Part shown: positions 2,344-60,930 of the stretch, in pieces
Layout of the letters: each line of letters starts with the position of its first letter
Numbering within the stretch: the first letter of the stretch is position 1
Source of the DNA: an uncultured bacterium
GTDB lineage: Bacteria > Verrucomicrobiota > Lentisphaeria > Victivallales > UBA1829
Assembly: GCA_902780135.1 (NCBI GenBank)
Contig: CACZEK010000003.1
Coordinates: 65,560 to 129,559 of the forward strand
Direction of reading: 5' to 3'
Length of the DNA stretch: 64,000 nt
Made by a program: the position numbers and the translations under genes
The notes under the pieces: generated by a model
Database searches by the model: none
What the model was told of the DNA's origin: nothing
Seen by the model: only the letters and a program-made list of their open reading frames with translations

Positions 2344-5300
2344 TCAATCCTTCCCCGGGCGGTTGCCGTAGGGGAAGAAGAAGATCCTGCCGCCGGTTTT
2401 CCCGTCCTCCACGGAGCGTTCGAAGAGGCCGCCGAGGAAGGACCACTCGTGGAAACCGGGGGCGTCCTTCGTGGTGATGAACGGGAAGATGAACTTGCGG
2501 GTGTTGATGCCGTCGGTGTCCATGTTGTAGAGGTATCCGAGGATGCTCCGGTGTTCCTTCGCGCCGAGCTTCTGGCTGTTCGCGCCGAGCCCGAAGAGGA
2601 CCTTGGTCTGGTAGTCGCCGGTCTCTTCGCAGCTGAAGGACGAGGACAGGATGCCGCTGGCGGTGTTGAATCCGGAGATCGTGCGTGTCACGAGGCGGTC
2701 GGCGGCGATCCCGCTGAGGCATGTCTCAAGGGCTTCCGTCAGGAGCGCGTTCGGTGCGGGCGGCTTCATGCCGTTCTTTTCCATGGCGACGATGACGTTG
2801 TTCAGGAGTCTCTGATACTCCGTCAGCCCCGTTTCGAACTTGTCCGGCGTGAGACTCAATGCCTCGGCGACGGTCATCCGGCCGAGTTCGGCGGCGTTGA
2901 ATCCCGAAACACAGTCCATCTTGTACAGACGGTACAGGTCGAGGTAGATGCTGCGGACCGCGTCCTTCGTGTCGGGCTTCCACTGGAGGAACGTCTCGTC
3001 GGAGGAGTTGAACAGGAAGAGCGCGTAGTGGTCGGTGCTGCCGCGGACCGGGAATCCGGTGTGCGACGCCTGAAGCGGGTTCACGCCCGGCTGGAGGATC
3101 CGCCTCGGATCGGGGATCGCCTCGTCGTGCCGCTGCGTCGCGCCGAAGTAGAGCAGGGGGCAGAGGATTCCGAGGGAGGAGCCTTCGTCGGAGGAGGTCC
3201 CGCCGGAGAGGAGCGGGAGCACGAACCAGGATTTCGAGATGTTGGAGAGGTCGCCGTCGCGGTCGAGGCAGTCCTTGCTCCAGAAGAAGAACGGGTAGAA
3301 CCCGCTGGAGGTGGAGCGTTCGTCGCCGTTCCAGAAAATCTCGTTCTCCCAGCGGACGATATTGTCCGCCATCGCCTGCGTGTCGGCGGCGGTGCGCGCG
3401 CCGTCGCGGTAGGCGGTCACGGCGGAAACGATGTCCTTGAAGCGCGCGTACTTCTTCAGCGCGGTGTTGCATGCCGCCGTGACCCGGAGGCCCCAGAAGT
3501 CCGCGAGGATGGGATCTTCGTCCGCGGCGGGCTGTTCCTTCAGAAGCTTCGCGAAGCTGTTGAGCGTCTCCGCGTCCAGGGTCCGGGGGCGGATCTCCGT
3601 GCTGGAACGGATGAGTCCGAGCGTGGAGAAGCTGTCGTCCGTGCATGCGTGCCCGTTGGCGAGGGTGTAGTACGTCTCGCTGGATTTGCTGCCGAGGATG
3701 CCGAGCAGCACGTCGGTCGAGGATGCCCTTTCCGTGATCTCGGTGTAGGTCAGCGGGGTCAGGACCTCGGTGGAAACGGCCTTCGTTTCGCCGTCCTTTT
3801 CGTTCACGGTGCGGTCGACGCCGAAGAGCGGGAAGAATCCGTAGCGGGTTTCGACGTTCCTGCCGCCGGACGCATGGATCTTCAGCCCGGCGTCCATGAG
3901 GCGTTTCACCGTGTCCTCCGCCTCCTTCGCGGTCATTTCGCCGGAGAGCGCGCGGTCCATGCCGCAGACGCGGAAGACTTCCTCGTTCGGGACGCCGGGG
4001 ATGATCTGCCTGACGCCGGACGGGTTGACGACGGTCACGGATTTGATCTCCCCGCCACTGGAGGACATGAGCGGGCCGCCGGGCGCCGGGGGCTGCGGGA
4101 CCGGGGTCCTGCCCGGAATATACTGCTTTCCGGCGTAGTCGGTATTGAGGTCGCGGCTCCACTGTTCGCTCTCCTCGGAGCCGTCCTCCATGAGGGCGCG
4201 CCGCAGGAGGTGTTCGATGCTCTCCTCCAGGTAAGCCTGCGGCGTGTAGTCGATCCGGGAGGAATACGGGACCTCGGTGTCGCGGAACCAGTACGGGAAG
4301 ACGCCGAGGATGTTGGTGTAGCTGGACGTCCGGTCGAATCCGTAGCTGTCGCGGCTCCGGTCGGAGCCGGACGTGAACAGGATGTGCCAGAGCAGCCAGT
4401 TCGAGCTGGAGTCCTTGTCGCGGTCGAATCCGAAGAGGTAGAAGAGCAGCCGCAGGTCGCGTTCGCCCTCGTTCGACGCGGTCCATTCGAAGAACGGATG
4501 CAGCGCGGTCGTGCGGACTTCCCACTTCGACGCGATCTCGTCGTCCACCTTGGTCCGCGCCTCCTCGCTCGTGAGGTCGTCCTCCTTCATGCGCGCCTTC
4601 ACGTCGTCCATGTAGGACGGCGAGTAGCCCCAGCGCGGGACGTAGTCGTCGCGTTCGTGCGCCGCCTTGAACCGGTTGCCCTTCTTCTCGTGGTCGGCGT
4701 AGATGAGGTAGCGGCGGCCGTGGACGGACGTGGTCGCGCGGTATTCGGGGTAGTCGTAGTCCTCGCGGAAGTACGGGATGGACGTGAATTCGGAGCCGAA
4801 GCGGTCCTTCTCCCAGCTGTACACGGGGAAGAGGTAGCTCCTGTTCGCCTCGCCCCGGCTGCGCTCGACGCGGAAGAACGGGAAGAAGCCGTACTCGCGC
4901 TCGTCATCGTCGTACGCCCACCACAGCGGGCCGACGTACTTCATGTCGTCCTCGGACGACGAGCCGCGGAAGAACGGGAAGACGCCCCACGCCGTGTGCC
5001 CCCAGTAGCCGAGCAGCAGCACGTTGCCCTCCGTCCAGGTCTCCTCCTCGCCGTCCTTGTGCGTGGCGGAATGGTTTTTCCACTTGCAGACGGGGAGGAT
5101 GAGCCCGCCGTCCTTGTCGAACCACGCGAACGGGAAGAGTCCGCGGTCCTCGGTGTTGTGGTCCCACCACCAGAGCAGGATGTTGTTGAAATGTTCGTCG
5201 CGCTTGTCGATGGCGTAGAACGGGAAGAAGCCGTGGCGCTCCCAGTCGTTCCGCCAGTAGCCGAGGAACAGGTATTGCCCCTTGATCCATTTGTCTTTCT

Positions 5301-6015
5301 GTTCGTCATATCCCGTTGCCATCCAGAGCAGCGGCGAGAGGAAAAAGTCGTTTTTGTCGTACAGATAGAGGGGAAACAGAGAGGAACTTTCCCCGACCCA
5401 GTGCCAGTAGAGCGGGAAGAGCCCGAACGCTTCCGTTTTTCCTCTGCCACCCCACCAGACCGGCCCGACGAATTCAAGCTCTTTCCCGAAGTAGCAGACG
5501 GGGAAAAGCCCGACGCGTCCTTCGTTGCCGAAGAGCGGTCCGGCGAACCAGAAATCGTCTTCCTCCTTCCCGATATGCATCAGCGGGAAGATGCCGAAGT
5601 GGTTTTTGTTCCAGTAGGCGTTCAGCGCCCAGCCGTCGCCGTTGACCGGATTCCACGCGCAGAGCGGGAAGAGGATGGAGTATTCGTTGCCCTCCTGGTT
5701 GAAGAACGGGCGGACCGCCATGCCGAAGTCGTCCCAGTCGATGAACGGCCACAGCACGCTGACATAGCGGCTGTTCACGGTGCAGAACGGCCAGATGTTG
5801 ACCTGGCGGTCCTTCAGCCCGACGGGGGCGCGGAGATTGACGACGGCGTCGTCGAACCTGCCGCCGGAGATGCGGCTCGCCTTCGGCGCGGAGTAGGAAT
5901 CGGAATCGTAGCTGATGCGGTTCATGCGTTCGCTGGAGGCGCAGGAGGAGACAAGCAGTGCCGCGAGAAGCGCGAGAGCGGAGAGGAAGGATGCTTTCAG
6001 GTGGCGCGGATTCAT
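2344..6015 (-). CDS. Large (1223 aa) putative lipoprotein with many aromatic xFPxF/W beta-repeat motifs
   Basis: Lipobox-like LLVSSC; recurring GLFPLYW/GFFPFF/VGPLWW-type motifs; strong host codon bias on this strand. Confidence 0.75.
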   Translation of the reverse strand: MNPRHLKASFLSALALLAALLVSSCASSERMNRISYDSDSYSAPKASRISGGRFDDAVVNLRAPVGLKDRQVNIWPFCTVNSRYVSVLWPFIDWDDFGMAVRPFFNQEGNEYSILFPLCAWNPVNGDGWALNAYWNKNHFGIFPLMHIGKEEDDFWFAGPLFGNEGRVGLFPVCYFGKELEFVGPVWWGGRGKTEAFGLFPLYWHWVGESSSLFPLYLYDKNDFFLSPLLWMATGYDEQKDKWIKGQYLFLGYWRNDWERHGFFPFYAIDKRDEHFNNILLWWWDHNTEDRGLFPFAWFDKDGGLILPVCKWKNHSATHKDGEEETWTEGNVLLLGYWGHTAWGVFPFFRGSSSEDDMKYVGPLWWAYDDDEREYGFFPFFRVERSRGEANRSYLFPVYSWEKDRFGSEFTSIPYFREDYDYPEYRATTSVHGRRYLIYADHEKKGNRFKAAHERDDYVPRWGYSPSYMDDVKARMKEDDLTSEEARTKVDDEIASKWEVRTTALHPFFEWTASNEGERDLRLLFYLFGFDRDKDSSSNWLLWHILFTSGSDRSRDSYGFDRTSSYTNILGVFPYWFRDTEVPYSSRIDYTPQAYLEESIEHLLRRALMEDGSEESEQWSRDLNTDYAGKQYIPGRTPVPQPPAPGGPLMSSSGGEIKSVTVVNPSGVRQIIPGVPNEEVFRVCGMDRALSGEMTAKEAEDTVKRLMDAGLKIHASGGRNVETRYGFFPLFGVDRTVNEKDGETKAVSTEVLTPLTYTEITERASSTDVLLGILGSKSSETYYTLANGHACTDDSFSTLGLIRSSTEIRPRTLDAETLNSFAKLLKEQPAADEDPILADFWGLRVTAACNTALKKYARFKDIVSAVTAYRDGARTAADTQAMADNIVRWENEIFWNGDERSTSSGFYPFFFWSKDCLDRDGDLSNISKSWFVLPLLSGGTSSDEGSSLGILCPLLYFGATQRHDEAIPDPRRILQPGVNPLQASHTGFPVRGSTDHYALFLFNSSDETFLQWKPDTKDAVRSIYLDLYRLYKMDCVSGFNAAELGRMTVAEALSLTPDKFETGLTEYQRLLNNVIVAMEKNGMKPPAPNALLTEALETCLSGIAADRLVTRTISGFNTASGILSSSFSCEETGDYQTKVLFGLGANSQKLGAKEHRSILGYLYNMDTDGINTRKFIFPFITTKDAPGFHEWSFLGGLFERSVEDGKTGGRIFFFPYGNRPGKD

Positions 6016-16387: not shown

Positions 16388-16424
16388 AACGCACGGCTGT
16401 TTGAAGGTCAAACAACTGTGCGTT
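16388..16424. terminator. Hairpin between convergent genes, likely terminator of the Mu-like mini-operon
   Basis: AACGCACGGCTGTTTGA / TCAAACAACTGTGCGTT arms, preceded by an A-run (U-run on the minus strand). Confidence 0.6.
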
Positions 16425-16446
16425 GCGTTTTGAGGCGATCTCGTGC

Positions 16447-16929
16447 TCAGGCGGGTGCCGTGTTCGATTCCGCCGATGCCGTTGAACCGGCGACGGAAAC
16501 GGCCTCCGTTGTCCGCGACGGGGAAAGCGCGGCGACCGTCAGGCACGCCGCCGCGCGGGAGTCAGGGCAGTCCAGCAGGCGGAACGACTCCGGGATGAAC
16601 ACGACGTCGCCGGACTGAAGTCCGTCCGGCGGAAACAGTTCCTGCAGGGCGTCGAATCTGCCGAGCGCGGCCGCCGTGCGGGCGTCGTCGGATCCCGCCA
16701 GCAGGTCGATGAGGATCAGGTGGAACTGCTGGCGCCGCGTGAGCGTGCTGTCCGTGTAGATCCCGTCGCCCGCGAGGACGAGCACGCACGGCGGCCTGAG
16801 CCCGGCGGGCATGGATTTGCCCTGGACCGCCAGTTCCGGCGTGCTCGCCGAGGCGAGTCCGACGGCGGGAAACGAGGTCGCGACGAGCGTTTTCAGCGTG
16901 TTCGCGATAGTGAGCGTGGCTTCGGTCAT
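16447..16929 (-). CDS. Phage-like protein, possibly Mu gp37/tail-terminator fold
   Basis: 160 aa; ATGA overlap with the portal stop; pattern of N-helix, PCVLV strand, F.L.LID strand and helix, compatible with tail-completion proteins. Weak recognition. Confidence 0.4.
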   Translation of the reverse strand: MTEATLTIANTLKTLVATSFPAVGLASASTPELAVQGKSMPAGLRPPCVLVLAGDGIYTDSTLTRRQQFHLILIDLLAGSDDARTAAALGRFDALQELFPPDGLQSGDVVFIPESFRLLDCPDSRAAACLTVAALSPSRTTEAVSVAGSTASAESNTAPA

Positions 16930-18164
16930 GGACGCACCTCCGGGGCGGGATCGGTTTCGGCGCGCGTGAGCGAAAGCCCGAACCGGGCGGAAAGCTCCGC
17001 GGGATCGGCGTCGAGGCCCGCGCGATGGAGCGTTTCGACGATGCCCGCGAAGACGGCGCGGTCTTCCTGCGCGGAGTTGCGGAATTTCAGGACCGGCGCG
17101 GCCGCCGCGTCGCCGAAATTGAACTTGGTCCACGGGACGGCGAGCTGGGTGCGGATGGTCGATTCGATCGCGCGGGCGTCGGCTTCCAGCAGGTCGCCGC
17201 GGACGCGGGACTGCGCGTCGCCGCCGGAAAGCCCGCCCGATTCGGACGAGCTGGCGAGCTGGCCGAGGATGACTTTCGTGATCGCTTTCGAGGTGTATTC
17301 CAGAAGCTTGAAATACACCTCGCCGCCCGAGTTCGACGCCTGCAGGAGTTCCAGCTCGGTCGACTTCGTGAACACGCCGCCGCCGTTCGGCCCGAAGCTG
17401 CGGATCAGGTTCCGCATCACCCCGCGTTCATTTTCCCACGCGCTGCGGTCGACTTTCGCCACCACGAACGGCATCCCGTAGCGTTCGACGAACGACACGA
17501 GGTCCTTCACCGGATAGTTCTGGAACACGTGCAGCCAGATCAGCGTCCGGATCAGCCCGGCGCGCGCCGGGTCGCCCGCGCTGCCGTGCGTGTGGACGAT
17601 GAACTTCGCCGGGGGCAGGGGGACGCCCGCGCGGTCGTCGTCCGTCACGAGGAGCGGCGTCTCCGAGTTGCGGAACGTGAAATGCCAGGCGCCCACGGGA
17701 CGGAATCCCGCCAGGTCGCCGCCCGCGCCCCAGATGATCTCGGCGGCGGACAGCGGCGCGATGACGGCGTCCATCAGGTGGTCGGCGAGTTCGTGGAACG
17801 ACGCCAGGCCCGGCTCGGAACCGGATGCTTTCAGCGCGGCTTCGAACGCCTGCGCGGCGTCTTTCGATGCCGGACGTCCGTCGCCGGGTTCCACGCCCCA
17901 GTCGAGCCCGGTCAGCGCGCTTTTCCGCACCTGCATCGCCAGGATGACTTCCCAGTTGCGTTCCTGGATCTCCCGGGCGGCGACGGCGAGTTCCGCGATG
18001 TCGCCCTCGTTCGCGGCCTCCAGAATCCGCGAGACGTTCGCCGGCGTGTATTCGGAGCTTTGGAGCCAGCGGCTGCGTTCTCCGGGGGCGGCTGCGGTCC
18101 AGCGCCCCGGGGCGGGGATGCCGTCGTTTCGGGCGGCGGTTCGGACGGAATGGTTCAGTTTCAT
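16926..18164 (-). CDS. Mu-like phage portal protein (gp29/DUF935 family)
   Basis: YTPANVSRILEAANEGD...MQVRKSALTGLDWGVEP, GLIRTLIW, FVERYGMPFVVAK, ITKVILGQ; 412 aa from ATG 18164. Confidence 0.85.
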   Translation of the reverse strand: MKLNHSVRTAARNDGIPAPGRWTAAAPGERSRWLQSSEYTPANVSRILEAANEGDIAELAVAAREIQERNWEVILAMQVRKSALTGLDWGVEPGDGRPASKDAAQAFEAALKASGSEPGLASFHELADHLMDAVIAPLSAAEIIWGAGGDLAGFRPVGAWHFTFRNSETPLLVTDDDRAGVPLPPAKFIVHTHGSAGDPARAGLIRTLIWLHVFQNYPVKDLVSFVERYGMPFVVAKVDRSAWENERGVMRNLIRSFGPNGGGVFTKSTELELLQASNSGGEVYFKLLEYTSKAITKVILGQLASSSESGGLSGGDAQSRVRGDLLEADARAIESTIRTQLAVPWTKFNFGDAAAAPVLKFRNSAQEDRAVFAGIVETLHRAGLDADPAELSARFGLSLTRAETDPAPEVRP

Positions 18165-18198
18165 GATCGGAATCCTTATGGTTTGAGGTTGAAGAGCA

Positions 18199-18834
18199 TT
18201 ACTGCGGTTTGACGCCGAGGAGCGAGGACAGACGGTCGGCGACCTCGGCTCCGTCCACGCGGGACCATTCGTCCCGGCGGCGGTCCAGCAGTTCATTGTA
18301 CTGCATCCGGGCGCGTTCGAGCGCCTCGCGCAGGCGGACGTTTTCTTCGGACAGCGCGGCGACGCGTTTCCGCAGGACGGTGTTCTGTCCGTCCGAAACG
18401 GATTTCGACAGCGTGACGGCCGAGCGGACGAGGCGTTCGATCGTCTTCGGGTCGTCGGTCGTGGCGTCGGTGCATTCCCGGACGAGCTTCAGCAGGTCGA
18501 TCTTGAGTTCCTCCGCGATGGCGCTCGTCGCCTCGCAGTCGCGGAGCAGTGCGGCGGACAGCCGAACCTCCTCGTACGCCCGGTGTACCTTTTCCCGTTC
18601 TTCGGCGATGGTCTTGAACTCGCGTGTGGCCCTGAACCGCGTGACGGCACCCGCCGTCAGCGTCATGCCGAGCGAACTCAGCGTTCCCGCCACTTCGGGA
18701 TTGCCGAGCACCGCCTGGCTCGTCGCGCCTTCGAGGAGCAGGCATGCGATCCGGTAGCGGAGCCGGAACGGGAGGCGTCCGAACTGGGAAGGCGGTTTTG
18801 TTTTCTGTTTCTTTTGCTTTTCGGGCAAGCCCAT
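18199..18834 (-). CDS. Mu gp27/DUF3486-like protein (putative small terminase)
   Basis: N-terminal SQFGRLPFRLRYRIACLLLEG resembles the S-K-I-x-x-L-P-x-x-x-R start of DUF3486; helical with a coiled-coil C-terminus; AGGAGG RBS; upstream of the portal. Confidence 0.55.
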   Translation of the reverse strand: MGLPEKQKKQKTKPPSQFGRLPFRLRYRIACLLLEGATSQAVLGNPEVAGTLSSLGMTLTAGAVTRFRATREFKTIAEEREKVHRAYEEVRLSAALLRDCEATSAIAEELKIDLLKLVRECTDATTDDPKTIERLVRSAVTLSKSVSDGQNTVLRKRVAALSEENVRLREALERARMQYNELLDRRRDEWSRVDGAEVADRLSSLLGVKPQ

Positions 18835-18911
18835 GGTCCCTCCTTTTTTTGATCCATTCTCTCAAGAAAAGCTCCGAACCCGGAAAAACGGACGCGCGTT
18901 TTTCGCAACGT

Positions 18912-18925
18912 ACTGAAATTTCAGT
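18912..18925. promoter_or_regulatory. Perfect 14-bp palindrome, candidate operator of the Mu-like mini-operon
   Basis: ACTGAAATTTCAGT, about 80 nt upstream of ATG 18834. Confidence 0.4.
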
Positions 18926-18983
18926 TGGTTGTGGATGACACGTCCGGCTCCGACGTTTTCCCCGTCCGCGCCGGTCGGGGCAC

Positions 18984-19018
18984 AAAAAAACCGGGCAGAC
19001 CCGTGCGGGCCTGTCCGG
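18984..19018 (-). terminator. Rho-independent terminator after the 19046-20989 gene
   Basis: CCGGGCAGACCCG-TG-CGGGCCTGTCCGG hairpin with an adjacent A-run (U-tract on the minus strand). Confidence 0.65.
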
Positions 19019-33180: not shown

Positions 33181-33292
33181 TGTTTGCATCCTTTTTGGGT
33201 GAAATGTTTCATCCTTTTCTTGATTTTGCGCCGTTTTTGTGGTATGTTTACATGCCCCTGACGAATCGGAAATATCTGAAAAACGGTGTATT

Positions 33293-34318
33293 ATGAACGA
33301 AAATCCCGGCAAGGAAACTAGTCCTGCAAAGAAGAAGCGCGGCGGCAACCGCGTGATAATCATTGTCCTTGCGGCTTGCCTTTTTTGCTGGCTTGCAGGC
33401 GTTTTTTTTCTGTTTAACTGTTTCCGCACCAGCTACAGACGCGTGCAGGAGTATGCCGACACCTATCAGCTGATCGTGCTTCTTGATGACGCGGTCCGGC
33501 AGTACAAACTTGATGTCGGGACATGCCCGTCCTCACTCCAGGGACTGCTGGAGAATATCGACCACGCCGAAAAATGGGACGGCCCCTACCTCAAACCGGC
33601 GCTTCCGCGTGACCCGTGGGGCAACGAATTTCATTATGTCTTCCCGGGAGAGCACGGCGAATTCGATATTTTCTCGCTCGGCTCCGACGGAAAGGAAGGC
33701 GGCGGGAGAAAAGGCGAAAGAATGGAACCCCGGAATCTGGCGGGCGATCTCGGCAACTGGGATATTGTGGAATGGAGGAAAGAAACGACCCCGTCCTTTT
33801 ATGATTTCGAGCTTGTCACGTGGGACGGTCAGGTCATCCGGACTGCCGACCTCAAGGGCAAGGTCGTGCTCGTGGTGAACACGTCCATGACCGACGTTTT
33901 TACGCCTCAGTATGCCCGTCTTGAGGAGATTTACAGGAAATACCGCGACAAGGGCTTCGAAATCCTGGATTTCCCCGGCATCCAGTTCACTTCGAGGCGG
34001 CCCGGGACGCAGTTTTCTCCCCGCAATGCGGATGTCCATTCGTTCCGCACGTCCCGTTACGGCGTGACGTTCCCGCAGATGGCGAACTCGGGTTCGGAGT
34101 TTCCCCCGCTTTATTCGTCGTTCCTCGGCCTGCCCCAATGGTACTTCACGAAATATCTCGTCGGCCGTGACGGCAAAGTCGTTCGGTGTTTCGCGCCGGA
34201 CCCGATCTACAATCCCGCCGACACCATGGACGAACTCGAACGCTGCATCCAGTCCCTGCTGGACGCCCCGCCCCCCGCCGCGGAGGATGCGGAACCGCCC
34301 GGACCCGAGGCGAATTGA
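33293..34318 (+). CDS. Fusion of a GspG-like pseudopilin domain and a glutathione-peroxidase-like domain lacking catalytic Cys
   Basis: WDGPYL...PRDPWGNEFHYVFPGEHGEFDIFSLGSDG...GNW (GspG) followed by LKGKVVLVVNT....FTPQY...YRDKGFEILDFP..QF...WYFTKYLVGRDGKVV (GPx). Confidence 0.85.
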   Translation: MNENPGKETSPAKKKRGGNRVIIIVLAACLFCWLAGVFFLFNCFRTSYRRVQEYADTYQLIVLLDDAVRQYKLDVGTCPSSLQGLLENIDHAEKWDGPYLKPALPRDPWGNEFHYVFPGEHGEFDIFSLGSDGKEGGGRKGERMEPRNLAGDLGNWDIVEWRKETTPSFYDFELVTWDGQVIRTADLKGKVVLVVNTSMTDVFTPQYARLEEIYRKYRDKGFEILDFPGIQFTSRRPGTQFSPRNADVHSFRTSRYGVTFPQMANSGSEFPPLYSSFLGLPQWYFTKYLVGRDGKVVRCFAPDPIYNPADTMDELERCIQSLLDAPPPAAEDAEPPGPEAN

Positions 34319-52724: not shown

Positions 52725-53681
52725 ATGTCGTCACGAATTGTCAGCAGAATGTTCGTTTTTCTCGCCGCGCTCGTCCTGACCGGCGCAATCTTCACCGGGT
52801 GCGGCAAACAGGATGCCGCCGACGCACAAGGCAAGTCCGCTCAAATCGGGAGCAAAACGGAACAGGTGAAAGGCATCGAGGAACTCGAAGCCGGTTACGC
52901 CGCCATAGATGCGGGCATAGACGCCATATACGGGCATGCTCAATACAGGACCGCCATGGATCCTCCGGAGAATGTTCAACCTGAGACCATAGCGGCGGCC
53001 ATAGCGAACGGCGCCTATGGGGAGAACCAATACAAGATCGCCGTGGAGCATTTCAGAAAAAGCGCGGACGAGGGCAACACGGACGCCATGCTGATGCTCT
53101 ATCTCTGCTGCAGGAGAGGCATCGGCGTCAAAAGACAGGAGGAAGGTGAAATTGCGGATCAATATCTGATACCGGCCGCGGAAGCCGGAAACGAGATCGC
53201 AAAGGCGTTCTACGGCCAATATCTGATCCTGAAAATGCAGGAAAAGGAAAAAGGGCTCGAAATGATCAGGGAAGTCGCGGACAGCGGATGCGTGTTTGCG
53301 CAGTATATGCTTGTGATGGCACGGGAGACCTTCCGGAACAGACTTGACAAAAAGGATGTGGAAGGGCTCATGGAACAGTATCTTGAAAAACTGGCATCCC
53401 TCCCCATGACCGACAAAAAGATCGTCCTTGACCATGTACCCGGCTTTATCTATCGGAACGAGGAGTTTTTCGACATTGATCCCAGGACAATCAATATAAA
53501 AGTCCCCACGATTGAGAATAAGATCGTCGTCTGTTCGCAGATATTGCTCGCCTCATACCTTTTTGAAGGGAGAAACGGTTTCCCGCGCGACAGAGAAAAA
53601 GCGAAGAAGTGGATCAGGAAAGCGGGCGAAAACGGGTTCGCCAAGGCGGATGACATCCTGAAAAATATGGAACCTGAATGA
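52725..53681 (+). CDS. Sel1-like repeat lipoprotein
   Basis: Lipobox IFTGC; AVEHFRKSADEGNTDAMLML.....G.GV, F.GRNGFPRDREKAKKWIRKAGENG; more A/T-rich codons than neighbours. Confidence 0.8.
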   Translation: MSSRIVSRMFVFLAALVLTGAIFTGCGKQDAADAQGKSAQIGSKTEQVKGIEELEAGYAAIDAGIDAIYGHAQYRTAMDPPENVQPETIAAAIANGAYGENQYKIAVEHFRKSADEGNTDAMLMLYLCCRRGIGVKRQEEGEIADQYLIPAAEAGNEIAKAFYGQYLILKMQEKEKGLEMIREVADSGCVFAQYMLVMARETFRNRLDKKDVEGLMEQYLEKLASLPMTDKKIVLDHVPGFIYRNEEFFDIDPRTINIKVPTIENKIVVCSQILLASYLFEGRNGFPRDREKAKKWIRKAGENGFAKADDILKNMEPE

Positions 53682-56880: not shown

Positions 56881-57897
56881 TTACTTTCCGTCGCCGCCCT
56901 GTGCGGCATCGGCGGGACTCGACTTTTTCTTGCCCTGGATGAGCGCGGCGGGATCGCTGTCGATGTACTGGATGAATTCGATCAGGGCATCGACGCCGCC
57001 GTTGACGTTGAAGAGCGTTTCGTCGAGGGTCTTGCTGGTGCGGATGGCGGTGGAGAGGAAAGCGCGGAAGTTTTCGGCGATCTTTCCGAATTCGATGGAC
57101 TTGATCTCCACTTCGACGGACTTCGTGAGGGATTCGACCGCGCTCACGGCTTCGCCGACGTTCTGCGCGATGGCGTCGACCTTGTCGCGGAGATCGGATC
57201 CGGTGAGCTTTTCGAGGTTTTCGATGCTCTTGCGCGCCTCGCTGACCATGGCGTTCACGTTGTCGATCGTCTCGTCGAATTTCGGCGAGTTGACGCGCTC
57301 GTTGATGGAGTCCAGCACGGCGTTCGTGCGGTCGCTGATGCCCTTGTAGTCGATGCTTTCGAGCTTGGCGAGGATGGTGGTCACGCTGCCGCGGAGGTCG
57401 CTGATGAGCGAGGGCTGGCTGGGGACGTAGGCGTATTCGAGCCCGAATTCCTTCACGTCGAACGTCGACGGCGCGGCGTCCTTGTCCGGCTGGAGTTCGA
57501 TGTACTTGCCGCCGGTGATGCCTTCCAGCTCCATGCGGCAGCGGAGGCCCTTCTGCACCGCCTTTTCGACTTCCTCGTTGAACTCATCGAGCGAGATCGT
57601 GACCGGGGCGTGGCCGGGCTGCTGGACTTTGAACTTGGAAATGTTGATCTCCATGTCGATGCGGATCACGTTGTCGTTGGGGTAGATCATGATCTCGCGG
57701 ACGCTGCCGATGGGCACGCCCTGATACTTCACGGAGGACCCGACCGAGAGCCCCTGCACGGATTCCGAGACGAGCGTGGAGATGTACGCTTTTTCCTTGA
57801 ACCTGTCCATGGTGCCGAGGATGAAGAGTGCGGCGAAGAATATGACGGCGCCCAGGATGATGAACAGTCCGAGTTTGAATTTGCTGTTGTCGTTCAT
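56881..57897 (-). CDS. mlaD: MCE/MlaD family protein
   Basis: N-terminal TM, SVQGLSVGSSVKYQGVPIGSV, GITGGKYIEL, long helical tail. Confidence 0.92.
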   Translation of the reverse strand: MNDNSKFKLGLFIILGAVIFFAALFILGTMDRFKEKAYISTLVSESVQGLSVGSSVKYQGVPIGSVREIMIYPNDNVIRIDMEINISKFKVQQPGHAPVTISLDEFNEEVEKAVQKGLRCRMELEGITGGKYIELQPDKDAAPSTFDVKEFGLEYAYVPSQPSLISDLRGSVTTILAKLESIDYKGISDRTNAVLDSINERVNSPKFDETIDNVNAMVSEARKSIENLEKLTGSDLRDKVDAIAQNVGEAVSAVESLTKSVEVEIKSIEFGKIAENFRAFLSTAIRTSKTLDETLFNVNGGVDALIEFIQYIDSDPAALIQGKKKSSPADAAQGGDGK

Positions 57898-57948
57898 GAT
57901 GCGGGATTCCTTCCTGAAACTGAAAATGACATGAAAACGGCCGGCGTG

Positions 57949-58773
57949 TCAGGCATGGTCCGGCTCCGTGCTGTTGCTTTTATAGGTGCCGCCGCGCGAG
58001 AGGAACGTGCGGACGTACTCGTCGGCGCTGTGGTCGCGGAGGTACGCGGGCGGCCCGTCGTCCACGATGCCCTTCTTTTCCGCGGAGAGCATGATCACGC
58101 GGTCGGAGACGCGGAAGATGCTGGGGAGCTCGTGCGTGACCATCATGATCGTGGCGTGGGTCTTCTCGCGGATCTCCAGGATCACGTTGTCGAGCATGTC
58201 GGAGGTCAGCGGGTCAAGCCCGGCGGACGGTTCGTCGAAGAAGAGCAGTTTCGGGTCGAGTGCGAGGGCGCGCGCGAAGGCGGCGCGTTTGATCATGCCG
58301 CCGGAGAGGTCCGAGGGCATGTAGTCTTCAAATCCGTTCAGATGGACGAGCGCGAGTTTTTCGGAGACGCGTTTCCGGATCTCGTCGCGCTTCCAGTTCG
58401 TCAGCTCCTCCATGGGGAGCGCGATGTTTTCGGCGACGCTCAGGGAACGGAACAGCGCGCCGCCCTGGTACGCCACGCCGAATTCGGACACGATGGAACG
58501 TTTTTCCTGCGCGTCCGCGCTCACGATGCTGCGTCCGTTGATGAGGATGTCGCCGCGGATCGGCTTGTGAAGGCCGATGATATGCTTGAGCAGGGTGCTC
58601 TTGCCGCAGCCGGATCCGCCGAGGATGGTCACGATCTGGCCCGGCTCGATGCGGAAGTTCAGGTTCTCGAGCACGACGCGCGAACCGTACCCGATGACGA
58701 GGTCGCGGACCTCGATCGCGGGCGTGCCTTTTGCGGCGGGAGCGGCCGCTGCGTTGTCGTTGCGGTCCGTCAT
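57949..58773 (-). CDS. mlaF: ABC transporter ATP-binding protein (MlaF/Mkl type)
   Basis: GGSGCGKST, QGGALF, LSGGMIKR, FFDEPSAGLDP, VTH. Confidence 0.93.
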   Translation of the reverse strand: MTDRNDNAAAAPAAKGTPAIEVRDLVIGYGSRVVLENLNFRIEPGQIVTILGGSGCGKSTLLKHIIGLHKPIRGDILINGRSIVSADAQEKRSIVSEFGVAYQGGALFRSLSVAENIALPMEELTNWKRDEIRKRVSEKLALVHLNGFEDYMPSDLSGGMIKRAAFARALALDPKLLFFDEPSAGLDPLTSDMLDNVILEIREKTHATIMMVTHELPSIFRVSDRVIMLSAEKKGIVDDGPPAYLRDHSADEYVRTFLSRGGTYKSNSTEPDHA

Positions 58774-58776
58774 GGC

Positions 58777-59592
58777 TCATGTCCCCCAGGCGTAGAACAC
58801 GGTGAAAAGTTTCGCGAGGAAGGTGTCCGCCAGCACGATGAAGAGGATGCTGGTGACGACCGCCGAGGTCGTGGACCGCCCGACCGCGATCGCGTCGTTT
58901 CCGGTGCGGAATCCGCGCCAGCAGCCGGTCATCGTGATGATGTACGCGAAGACGAAGCTCTTCAGGATGCCCTCGAAGAAATACTTCACCGCCACGCCCT
59001 GCCGGGTCAGCTGCAGGAAGACGTCCATGGGCATGCCCAGCTCGCTCTTCATCACCAGGTAGCCGCCCGCGCAGCCGACGAAATCGCCGACGACGGTCAG
59101 GAGCGGCAGCATGACCAGCATCGCCCACATTTTCGGGACCACCAGGAACCGCGTGGGGCGGATGCCCATCGTCTGGAGGGCGTTGAGTTCCTCCGAGATC
59201 TTCATGGTGCCGATCTCGGCGGCGAAGGCGGATCCGCTGCGGCCCGTCGCCACGATGGCGACCATCAGCGGGCCGAGTTCGCGCAGGATGGTGCATCCGA
59301 TGACCATGGGCAGGAAATTGTCCGCGCCGTATTTGTGCGACTGCACTTCCGCCTGGTACGCCAGCACCACGCCCATCAGCGTGCTGATCATGATCGTGAT
59401 CGGCAGCCCGTCCGGGCCGCAGGTGTTCATGTAGAAAAGAAAATCCTTCCAGCGGAGGCGTTTCGGGTGGCGGAACCCTTCCCACAATGCGGCGGTGACG
59501 TCGCCCAGAAACGTGACCATGGACACGGCCTCGTCTTTGAGCTGGAATGCCATTTCTCCGAACTGGCTGATCTTTTCCGCTGTCGTTTTCAT
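58777..59592 (-). CDS. mlaE: MlaE family ABC permease
   Basis: RELGPLMVAIVATGRSGSAFAAEIGTMKISEE..AL.TMG. Confidence 0.94.
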   Translation of the reverse strand: MKTTAEKISQFGEMAFQLKDEAVSMVTFLGDVTAALWEGFRHPKRLRWKDFLFYMNTCGPDGLPITIMISTLMGVVLAYQAEVQSHKYGADNFLPMVIGCTILRELGPLMVAIVATGRSGSAFAAEIGTMKISEELNALQTMGIRPTRFLVVPKMWAMLVMLPLLTVVGDFVGCAGGYLVMKSELGMPMDVFLQLTRQGVAVKYFFEGILKSFVFAYIITMTGCWRGFRTGNDAIAVGRSTTSAVVTSILFIVLADTFLAKLFTVFYAWGT

Positions 59593-59661
59593 GGATTCTT
59601 CATCTGCCGTTTTTATCCCGGCGAACCGGACCCGGATGCGGCGAAGGAAGACGGTCCCCGC

Positions 59662-60666
59662 TTAAAAGGACTGTCCGTTTCCGTCTTCCGGTTTCTCCTC
59701 GGTTTCCGCGCCGGAACTGTAGGGATTCCCGTCGGGATCCAGCAGCACGACTTTGCGGGCGCATTCGCCGCGGTCGTTGGTGCCGACTTCGAATTCCACT
59801 TTGTCGTTGATGGCGAGCTCGTCGAACGCGCAGTTCTCGAGGTCTTCCCACAGGAAGAAGAAATCGTGGTCGCCGCGGTCCGGCGTGATGAACCCGTATC
59901 CGCTCTTCAGCTGGACCACGGTGCCGCGGCGGCGTTCGGGCGGGAGGCTTTCGTCGTAGTCGTCCTCCTCCTCGTAGCCGTCGTCCTGTTCGACGTTCTC
60001 GGATGCGGAATAGGCGTTTCCGCCGCCGGAGACGAAGAGCGCGTCGATCTTGTCCTGCGGATAAAGCTGTTTTTCGATGATGTCCTGCATCCAGATGCCG
60101 TAGGTGGCTTCCGCCATCAGGCGGCCGGACGTCATGGTCTGGCGGTGCCCGCCGTTGTCGTCCTCGTAGGAATATTCCCAGCCGATCACCATGACGCGCG
60201 CGCCGAGGGAGTTGAGCTTGCGGACGAGCGGGACATAGTCGCCGTCGCAGGCGACCAGGACCACGACGTCGAATCCGATGTGGACCATCTGCTCGTAGGC
60301 TTCCAGCGCGAGCGAGATGTTCGCGCCCTTTTCGGAGCCGTGGCTGACGGGGAGGAAATGCGCCACGACGCCTTCGCGCGTCAGGACGTCGTCGAAATTG
60401 CGTTCGGAGAAGAGCAGATGCCGCAGGTTCGCCTCGGACGCGGTCAGGCGGCCGCGGAAATAATGGCTGTCGACGATCCGGCAGAGGTTTTCGCTGACAT
60501 GTTCGCGTTCCGCCACCATGGTGCGGATGAGGCTGTGAAGTCCGGGGACGCTGATGCGGCTTCTGCGCGGATGGCCGTGGTAGTAGTAGTTGCTGACGTG
60601 ATAGAAATAGTTCCCGTCGTAGAAAATGCCGATCCGGATCAGTCCGGAATCCTTTTTCGCGTCCAT
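59662..60666 (-). CDS. NYN (LabA/DUF88) domain plus cold-shock domain protein
   Basis: IFYDGNY, EKG.N, ACDGDYVPL; C-terminal GYGFI......FFF...L CSD; start placed at ATG 60666. Confidence 0.9.
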   Translation of the reverse strand: MDAKKDSGLIRIGIFYDGNYFYHVSNYYYHGHPRRSRISVPGLHSLIRTMVAEREHVSENLCRIVDSHYFRGRLTASEANLRHLLFSERNFDDVLTREGVVAHFLPVSHGSEKGANISLALEAYEQMVHIGFDVVVLVACDGDYVPLVRKLNSLGARVMVIGWEYSYEDDNGGHRQTMTSGRLMAEATYGIWMQDIIEKQLYPQDKIDALFVSGGGNAYSASENVEQDDGYEEEDDYDESLPPERRRGTVVQLKSGYGFITPDRGDHDFFFLWEDLENCAFDELAINDKVEFEVGTNDRGECARKVVLLDPDGNPYSSGAETEEKPEDGNGQSF

Positions 60667-60930
60667 AAGACGTCTTCCTTTCCTGTTTTTGTTCTGTTCC
60701 GTTATTGCGGGATGATACTGAAATCGTTTCACACTCGAAACATTTCAAGTCTTAACATAGCACGTTTTTTTCAAAAATCCAGTGCCGTTGAGAAAAAACG
60801 CCCAAACAATTAGATTTTTTCCGGTTTTGTTCCTTTTTCTCAAGTCGTTCTGTTCGATTCGCTAACACTTTTTTTGCGGTTCGGTCCGTCTGGACGGCAA
60901 CCGCCGCGAAAAGAGGCTCACAATCTTTTT

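Follow-up and report, generated by a model that had tools for sequence, protein, structure and literature searches.

A three-gene operon of Mu-like phage origin in rumen Victivallales: a candidate part of a split, gene transfer agent-like system

Why would a bacterial chromosome hold three adjacent virion-assembly genes of Mu-like phage ancestry with no large terminase or capsid gene beside them? This question is raised by a 64,000-nucleotide stretch of DNA (the window; contig CACZEK010000003.1, positions 65,560 to 129,559, assembly GCA_902780135.1) from an uncultured Lentisphaeria/Victivallales bacterium, whose operon-bearing relatives are mostly metagenome-assembled genomes (MAGs) from the rumen. 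On the minus strand of the window, at 16388-19018, three co-oriented open reading frames (ORFs; 18834-16447) lie between two terminator-like hairpins. An earlier note on this DNA had read them as a retained module that might act by itself, either as a decoy or satellite-type device that interferes with phages or as a portal ring reused by the host. The best explanation for the evidence presented below is instead that in rumen Victivallales (class Lentisphaeria), the genes of a domesticated Mu-like virion-assembly set are distributed over two or more chromosomal loci at fixed positions. With a probability of roughly 65%, the operon belongs to a split particle system under host control that derives from a Mu-like phage and resembles a gene transfer agent (GTA). 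The features of the locus are as follows.

18996..19013, minus strand: terminator-like hairpin with T-run (7-pair stem, 5 GC pairs), which ends the upstream 647-aa host gene and marks the upstream operon boundary
18861..18940, minus strand: conserved upstream region, putatively regulatory, conserved across 15 loci
18839..18844, minus strand: AGGAGG ribosome-binding site of ORF1, 4 nt 5' of the ORF1 ATG, kept in 16 of 16 loci
18199..18834, minus strand: ORF1, 211 aa, gp27/small-terminase-like (phage homology by position, and AlphaFold2 (AF2) architecture)
16926..18164, minus strand: ORF2, 412 aa, Mu-type portal (PF06074/DUF935; Pfam, phrog_113 and PDB portals)
16447..16929, minus strand: ORF3, 160 aa, tail-terminator fold at the Mu gp37 position (AF2 model and Foldseek)
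16388..16416, minus strand: terminator-like hairpin with T-run that ends the operon (9-pair stem; the hairpin itself spans 16416-16396)

ORF1 and ORF2 are separated by a 34-nt spacer (18198-18165), and the stop codon of ORF2 overlaps the start codon of ORF3 in the sequence ATGA (16929-16926), which suggests that the portal and ORF3 are translationally coupled. Third-position GC content is host-like, with 0.85 for the portal and 0.8-0.95 for neighboring genes. This arrangement of co-oriented frames, ribosome-binding site, short gap, overlap, terminators and host-like codon usage had been described before, and every element of it is present. A scan for sigma-70 promoters, which is uninformative for this phylum, gave zero matches.

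The first step is to establish what the three genes encode. Three intact Mu-like phages of Lentisphaeria (L008, L010 and L030) provide the reference gene order, which runs from a gene at the gp27 position through the large terminase (TerL), portal, (MuF), protease, a scaffold-like gene, the gpT capsid and Gp36 to a gene at the gp37 position. Such related Mu-like phages are common in Lentisphaeria and are present in the same rumen samples. ORF2 is firmly identified as a full-length Mu-type portal. It matches the Pfam model Portal_Mu with E=2.3e-70 and 238 bits (cut-off 23.9) over model positions 5-336 of 336, phrog_113 with 4.5e-68, and the PDB portals 8rka (1.8e-34) and 9khx, the Mu portal (1.7e-27). 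The suspicion that this portal is C-terminally short can be set aside, since the whole model is covered and the portals of the intact related Lentisphaeria phages have 402 aa. A longer reading of ORF2 (456 aa) was rejected; the relatives are all called at 406-418 aa.

Because family searches were empty for the other two proteins, they were identified from positional homology and structure. ORF3 has no sequence-family match in Pfam or PHROG. Its AF2 model (predicted local distance difference test score, 74.6; predicted template modeling score, 0.69) was compared with the PDB by Foldseek and matched the Salmonella prophage protein 2gjv (1.6e-5), the Mu terminator 9khy_1 (2.5e-5), lambda gpU 8iyd_K (8e-5) and also T4 gp15, with probability 1.0 and TM-scores of about 0.5 for the top matches. 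Furthermore, ORF3 is homologous to the gene directly 3' of Gp36 (PF07030) in L010 (E=1e-10), and its positional equivalent in L030 likewise lies 3' of Gp36. By predicted fold and by position, ORF3 is firmly assigned as a tail terminator; only the last ~22 residues at its C-terminus vary and are disordered.

ORF1 is homologous to the gene immediately 5' of TerL in all three reference phages (E=1e-15 to 1e-16). Its AF2 model begins with a Lys-rich, disordered N-terminus. A helical domain of helix-turn-helix (HTH)-like type comes next (roughly residues 17-67), then a pair of long coiled-coil helices (71-123, 129-192), and lastly a C-terminal helix whose conservation extends to the phage homologs. 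Small terminases (TerS) bind TerL through the corresponding C-terminal region. Phage gene position and architecture thus lend moderate support to ORF1 as a TerS-like protein. A profile of ORF1 retrieved only 60 related clusters from 1.84 billion representative proteins. The gene labels proposed earlier therefore stand, the portal by Pfam, the tail terminator by fold and the gp27/TerS-like protein by position and architecture, and the worry that ORF1 and ORF3 might lack phage homologs has not been borne out.

Three virion genes in a chromosome could simply be left over from a dead prophage, functionless and drifting, and the phage ancestry of the operon is clear. Its conservation is difficult to reconcile with such a neutral remnant. 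In what is here called lineage A, the gene order is RNase HII, the 647-aa gene, the three genes, a 257-aa gene, FtsW, MurG and a Ser/Thr kinase. The same locus occurs in 13 further GTDB species (14 with the window genome) and in metagenome contigs that reach 532 kb. When relatives were searched for the same synteny, as the earlier note had proposed, the three genes were found between the same host flanks and uninterrupted in every case (16/16 lineage-A loci), despite a synonymous divergence (dS) of about 0.4-0.6. Identical junctions in contigs from independent samples, again up to 532 kb long, dispose of the objection that an assembly break or artefact has separated the operon from its partners.

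Median ratios of nonsynonymous to synonymous substitution (dN/dS), taken over 120 pairs, are 0.079 for ORF1, 0.13 for the portal (ORF2) and 0.24 for ORF3. Adjacent host genes give 0.16 (FtsW), 0.13 (MurG) and 0.06 (RNase HII), and the flanking unknown genes 0.27 and 0.36. Distances within the module follow those of the adjacent host genes (Mantel test, r=0.92, p<=2e-4), and only 3 of 13 neighbor-joining splits are common to module and host genes, in a comparison confined to linked genes. These results moderately support vertical inheritance of the operon and its co-diversification with the host.

The same three-gene unit also occurs in two divergent lineages, B (UBA1732) and C (SRP141132_co3_47), in other chromosomal neighborhoods, and ATGA-type coupling is mostly retained there. 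Protein identity between module copies is 51-64% for the TerS-like protein (22-33% to phage copies), 59-66% for the portal (45-54% to phage copies) and 31-40% for the terminator (17-27% to phage copies). The module copies of all three genes are nearer to each other than to any phage copy, which points to a single origin of the fused operon. The flanking 647-aa and 257-aa genes were considered as operon members and rejected, as they are absent in the other two contexts and evolve faster. Genes of 537, 725 and 530 aa beside the lineage C module were considered as TerL-like and have no such similarity.

A functionless remnant would thus have to have kept 16 of 16 lineage-A loci intact at this divergence with dN/dS of 0.08-0.24, preserved its translational coupling and ribosome-binding site, and remained a unit across lineages whose proteins are 51-66% (ORF1, portal) and 31-40% (ORF3) identical. 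This explanation is effectively refuted. The evidence supports the view, already taken in the earlier note, that the operon is a module that has been retained and domesticated, as opposed to a prophage in decay: it is intact in all 13 further species, constrained, and co-divergent with host genes.

Some variation was seen at the N-terminus of ORF1. The lineage B homolog (L006:9076-9900, UBA1732, DCIG01000045.1) carries an N-terminal extension of ~70 aa that is Lys/Ala-rich and resembles histone H1, which suggests non-specific DNA binding. In one species (L016:10001-10003), ATA stands at the position of the ORF1 start codon instead of ATG, and in two others (L022/L023) ORF1 starts with TTG and is shorter by 2 codons at the N-terminus. 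The start of ORF1 may vary, or ATA may be tolerated.

If the module is functional, where are the other parts of the particle? No homologs of the TerL, capsid, protease, MuF or tail proteins of the related Lentisphaeria Mu-like phages were found within the 64-kb window, and no further phage-like genes were seen in the ~20-kb neighborhoods of the operons of relatives. The operon and its flanks are devoid of an integrase, a primase/replication gene, a tRNA and att-like flanking repeats, and a search for att-like direct repeats and signs of mobile elements around the operon found short chance repeats only. The earlier statement that TerL and capsid genes are lacking holds for the window locus but fails genome-wide, because a second locus in the same MAGs has both.

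The second locus was recovered by scanning metagenomes with Lentisphaeria TerL, which returned ordinary phages and, in the same rumen samples, this other locus type (L063, L068, L074-L077 and L079). TerL-only matches in three high-GC contigs (L065, L071 and L072) belonged to unrelated phage types and were dropped. GC content is 0.60-0.61 both at the module and at the second locus. The full locus (L112/L115) lies on a 262-kb scaffold, where it is flanked by uvrA and, at the opposite end, by genes for desulfoferrodoxin and rubredoxin. Its gene order, with lengths in aa, is given here.

Second locus, first part: TerL 462, protease 355, p136, gpT capsid 300, Gp36 139
Second locus, continued: p110, p48, p260, p190, p370, p869, p128, p129, p76, p136b

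In this series, p136 is a predicted scaffold-like protein. The protease follows TerL after 92-108 nt with no portal between them, the next gene begins 2 nt after gp36 with no terminator, and no gp27-like gene precedes TerL. Compared with its intact relatives, what the second locus lacks is therefore precisely the content of the window operon, namely a gp27-like gene, a portal and a terminator. The second locus yielded no gene for an integrase, transposase, repressor or replication protein. Purifying selection acts here as well, with dN/dS of 0.049 for the capsid, 0.095 for TerL and 0.10-0.18 for the others, and the capsid is 95-99% identical across lineages.

Both loci occur in the same genomes. 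MAG J6Y92 has module genes J6Y92_02130 and _02140 and the second-locus protein J6Y92_01280, MAG IKQ16 has module gene IKQ16_08650 and the second-locus TerL IKQ16_00390, and in three more MAGs the two loci are linked by adjacent GenBank accession blocks. Judging from locus tags, the module and the second locus are 170 to about 1650 genes apart, so that a single headful could not carry both.

Two additional observations concern the makeup of the second locus. Its TerL is closest (65%) to that of phage L059 (ERZ1034087 contig), whose capsid is only 35% identical to the second-locus capsid; the latter shares 51-58% identity with the capsids of L008, L010 and L030, whose TerL proteins reach only 41-48%. 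This pattern points to a mosaic ancestry of the head module. Also, the last two genes (L115:10387-11051) look membrane-associated, with a C-terminal hydrophobic helix in p76 and a lipoprotein-type signal (…VFAGC) in p136b. Both have zero family matches, and they could be holin-like and spanin-like lysis genes. More generally, some of the further genes of this locus look tail-related or lysis-related.

The existence of the second locus bears directly on explanations in which the operon acts alone. One of these is that decoy TerS-like, portal and terminator subunits poison the packaging or head-tail joining of Mu-like phages. Potential targets are available, since related Mu-like phages with portals 52-57% identical are frequent in Lentisphaeria and in the same rumen samples. 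All three proteins would form low-copy homo-oligomeric rings, such that one bad subunit could be dominant-negative, and the module is self-contained in three different chromosomal contexts. However, the conserved and selected second locus in the same genomes has need of precisely these parts. At its fixed position the module shows the slow evolution of FtsW and MurG, unlike typical defense genes, and the PADLOC-DB v2 defense models gave zero matches to the three operon proteins. Furthermore, ORF1 and ORF3 are only 17-33% identical to their counterparts in the sampled phages, which is low for co-assembly. An interference function is therefore unlikely.

A host function unrelated to virions has also been considered, for example a DNA-handling device or a role of ORF1 as a transcription regulator, in which case the complementarity of the two loci would be merely historical. 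Conservation at the level of housekeeping genes and the cell-division neighbors in lineage A would fit such a role, as would the HTH-like domain of ORF1 and its histone-like, Lys-rich tail in lineage B. The neighborhood is not conserved in lineages B and C, however, and the strongly selected second locus would be non-functional without a portal. In addition, we know of no cellular role for a portal. Such a function appears quite improbable.

Finally, the three genes might be the remnant of a phage satellite that once redirected helper capsids, packaging or tails and is now fixed in the chromosome. Satellites such as capsid-forming phage-inducible chromosomal islands (cf-PICIs) carry their own TerS, portal and connector genes, and the operon resembles them and other satellites with such genes in having a small packaging/connector set apart from the virion genes; its occurrence in three genomic contexts would also fit. 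Unlike satellites, the operon is without an integrase, att site, primase or replication module, flanking repeat, tRNA or helper dependence, and it is flanked by housekeeping genes that are themselves conserved. IMG/VR viral contigs yielded no relative of ORF1, and the missing partners are chromosomal and co-inherited instead of helper-encoded. A satellite origin of this kind is very improbable. Thus, none of the stand-alone roles suggested earlier fits well with the rest of the genome, where a search found a gp28 and capsid locus that lacks exactly these three genes.

The reading preferred here is that the two loci are parts of one system, which probably builds a phage-like, DNA-packaging particle for the host. 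In this best-supported reading, the operon would supply three low-copy, ring-forming parts: the TerS-like protein, the portal and the tail terminator. Both operons would be switched on via a common upstream element. The portal would nucleate procapsids from the capsid, scaffold and protease of the second locus, and an ORF1 oligomer would bind DNA and recruit the second-locus TerL by the conserved C-terminal helix. TerL would then package DNA through the portal, after which the gp36 adaptor and the ORF3 terminator would join head to tail, with the terminator completing the tail. Because neither locus has genes for integration, replication or lysogeny, their product would be no virus but a particle under host control that resembles a GTA (a viriform). 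Each of the three parts would be present at about 6-12 copies per particle, and their separate operon might set stoichiometry or serve as a licensing switch.

Clues to a shared control come from the conserved region upstream of ORF1. Its blocks are TGTCAT (18940-18935) and, 31 nt on, GTTGCG (18909-18904), followed by GCGTCCGTTTTT (18895-18884) and CTTTTCTTGAGAGA (18871-18858); across loci, the consensus of the later blocks is GCGTCCG and then TTTTnTTGAGAGA. In the window genome the element is partly palindromic around 18904-18933 (CAACCAACTGAAAT / ATTTCAGTACGTTG, within 18895-18942), and in the second locus of L075 the core CAACTGATAG is present as a direct repeat. A position weight matrix of the first upstream block of the module has its best match per second locus on the plus (coding) strand, 271-298 nt 5' of TerL. 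These matches score 11.7-15.5 bits; within the window, the best match other than the block itself reaches 11.4. In a joint alignment, the conserved blocks are colinear between the module and the second locus. These matches are suggestive of co-regulation of the two loci through a common element, which is perhaps an inherited phage late promoter.

Several results count against a split particle system and must be weighed. The evidence for the common element amounts to effectively one independent comparison between AT-rich intergenic regions. Co-occurrence of the module and the second locus has been seen in five MAGs only, and lineages UBA1732 and SRP141132_co3_47 are outside that count. The genes 3' of gp36 in the second locus have no Pfam or PHROGs matches, and among them only p260 has phage homologs. 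No homolog of two genes that come after the terminator in intact phages (about 240 aa and 550-660 aa) was found in either locus, which implies a third locus or a particle unlike that of the phages. In one contig (L079, Ga0265298_10011642), an IS200-like Y1 transposase (4904-5362; PF01797, 7e-35) replaces p136 and capsid through p869, while TerL, protease and the last four genes are kept beside the usual desulfoferrodoxin/ODP flank. The partner locus of this lineage has decayed, which means that the system is dispensable in at least one lineage.

The assignment of ORF1 also belongs among these points. Two marks of the gp27/small-terminase group, namely the position before TerL and the order of HTH, coiled coil and C-tail, are seen in ORF1, but it has no direct match in Pfam or PHROG and no match to PF11985 (Phage_Mu_Gp27). 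The same profile is likewise unmatched by the three phage counterparts, and it is matched by 2 of 41 aligned distant members of the ORF1 family, at 6e-4. The fold search, which for ORF3 found tail terminators, gave nothing significant for ORF1, with the G20C small terminase as the best match (E=0.75), and a profile search of the PDB yielded only non-significant coiled-coil or HTH matches.

How would a split system of this type compare with what is known? Criteria for GTAs and viriforms have been laid out (PMC9662315), and the traits among them that can be read from genes alone are found here: proteins derived from caudoviruses, endogenization at multiple loci, and mostly vertical inheritance, the last with moderate support. 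The criteria further list caudovirion-like particles, packaging of mostly random host DNA with incomplete packaging of the element's own loci, and delivery of DNA into other cells. The ICTV scheme for viriforms recognizes three GTA families (PMC9662315), and GTA-like elements are difficult to distinguish from dead prophages (PMC9662315; PMC12946183). In the literature, no report was found of a GTA from Lentisphaerae or of an orphan TerS-portal-terminator operon. A few further GTAs that have been described experimentally remain unclassified.

The closest precedent is RcGTA of Rhodobacter capsulatus, which has a multilocus "genome" (Hynes et al. 2016, PMC5026251). Both systems consist of endogenized caudovirus head-tail genes at more than one locus, lack replication and integration genes, are vertically inherited and are under purifying selection. 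Both also have their own TerS-like, TerL, portal, protease, capsid, adaptor and terminator-type parts. In contrast to RcGTA, the system described here has a Mu-type portal, a gpT capsid and Gp36 ancestry, and it is found in Lentisphaerota instead of Alphaproteobacteria. Furthermore, TerS, TerL and portal lie together in the main RcGTA cluster, whereas here the TerS-like protein, portal and terminator are encoded in a separate operon. Particle production and DNA transfer have been shown for RcGTA, whereas the Lentisphaeria system is known only as a set of genes.

Other comparisons are instructive as well. In intact Lentisphaeria Mu-like phages, the three genes are non-adjacent, being split by TerL and all of the head module, and their surroundings are viral, whereas in the window genome the genes for the homologous proteins are joined in one operon between housekeeping genes. 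Domesticated defective prophages, as Bobay et al. reportedly described in 2014, retain phage-derived genes under purifying selection in bacterial chromosomes. Compared with those cases, what is seen here is a complementary and apparently complete head-assembly set over two loci, not isolated tail or lysis genes.

Taken together, the sequences mark the locus pair of these Lentisphaerota as a candidate for a GTA-like viriform that is multilocus and of Mu-like ancestry. A more specific proposal is that rumen Victivallales (Lentisphaerota, Planctomycetes-Verrucomicrobia-Chlamydiae superphylum) have an undescribed, independently evolved GTA derived from a Mu-like phage, in which the ring-forming parts are set in a separate operon with the same promoter architecture as the head-tail cluster, as a means of controlling stoichiometry or licensing. 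This proposal is tentative, and we consider its chances to be somewhat short of even. The locus pair would add a GTA candidate from a new phylum and with a new phage ancestry, in abundant uncultured rumen bacteria. It also provides a signature that can be recognized without experiments, namely a pair of loci that complement each other, neither of use by itself, with selection on both at the level of housekeeping genes. The case also shows that a portal gene found as an "orphan" can point to a split system and is not necessarily a decoy or a relic, which matters for the annotation of prophages and defense islands. If particles are made, they would offer a route of gene exchange in the rumen microbiome, and the separated ring-forming parts would give a handle on how the host controls particle production.

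Elsewhere in the window, three regions stand out by their composition. An ORF of 1067 aa on the plus strand (57610-60813), with no Pfam match, has codon-position GC of 0.84/0.39/0.58 compared with ~0.6/0.45/0.88 in its neighbors, and it may be a repeat-rich protein or not a real gene. There are also two patches of lower GC, at 52725-53681 (0.51) and 33239-34318 (0.55). The first encodes a Sel1-repeat protein. The second is a 359-aa ORF that joins a type II secretion system pseudopilin G domain and a glutathione-peroxidase domain in a single frame, and it may represent two genes or a fusion.

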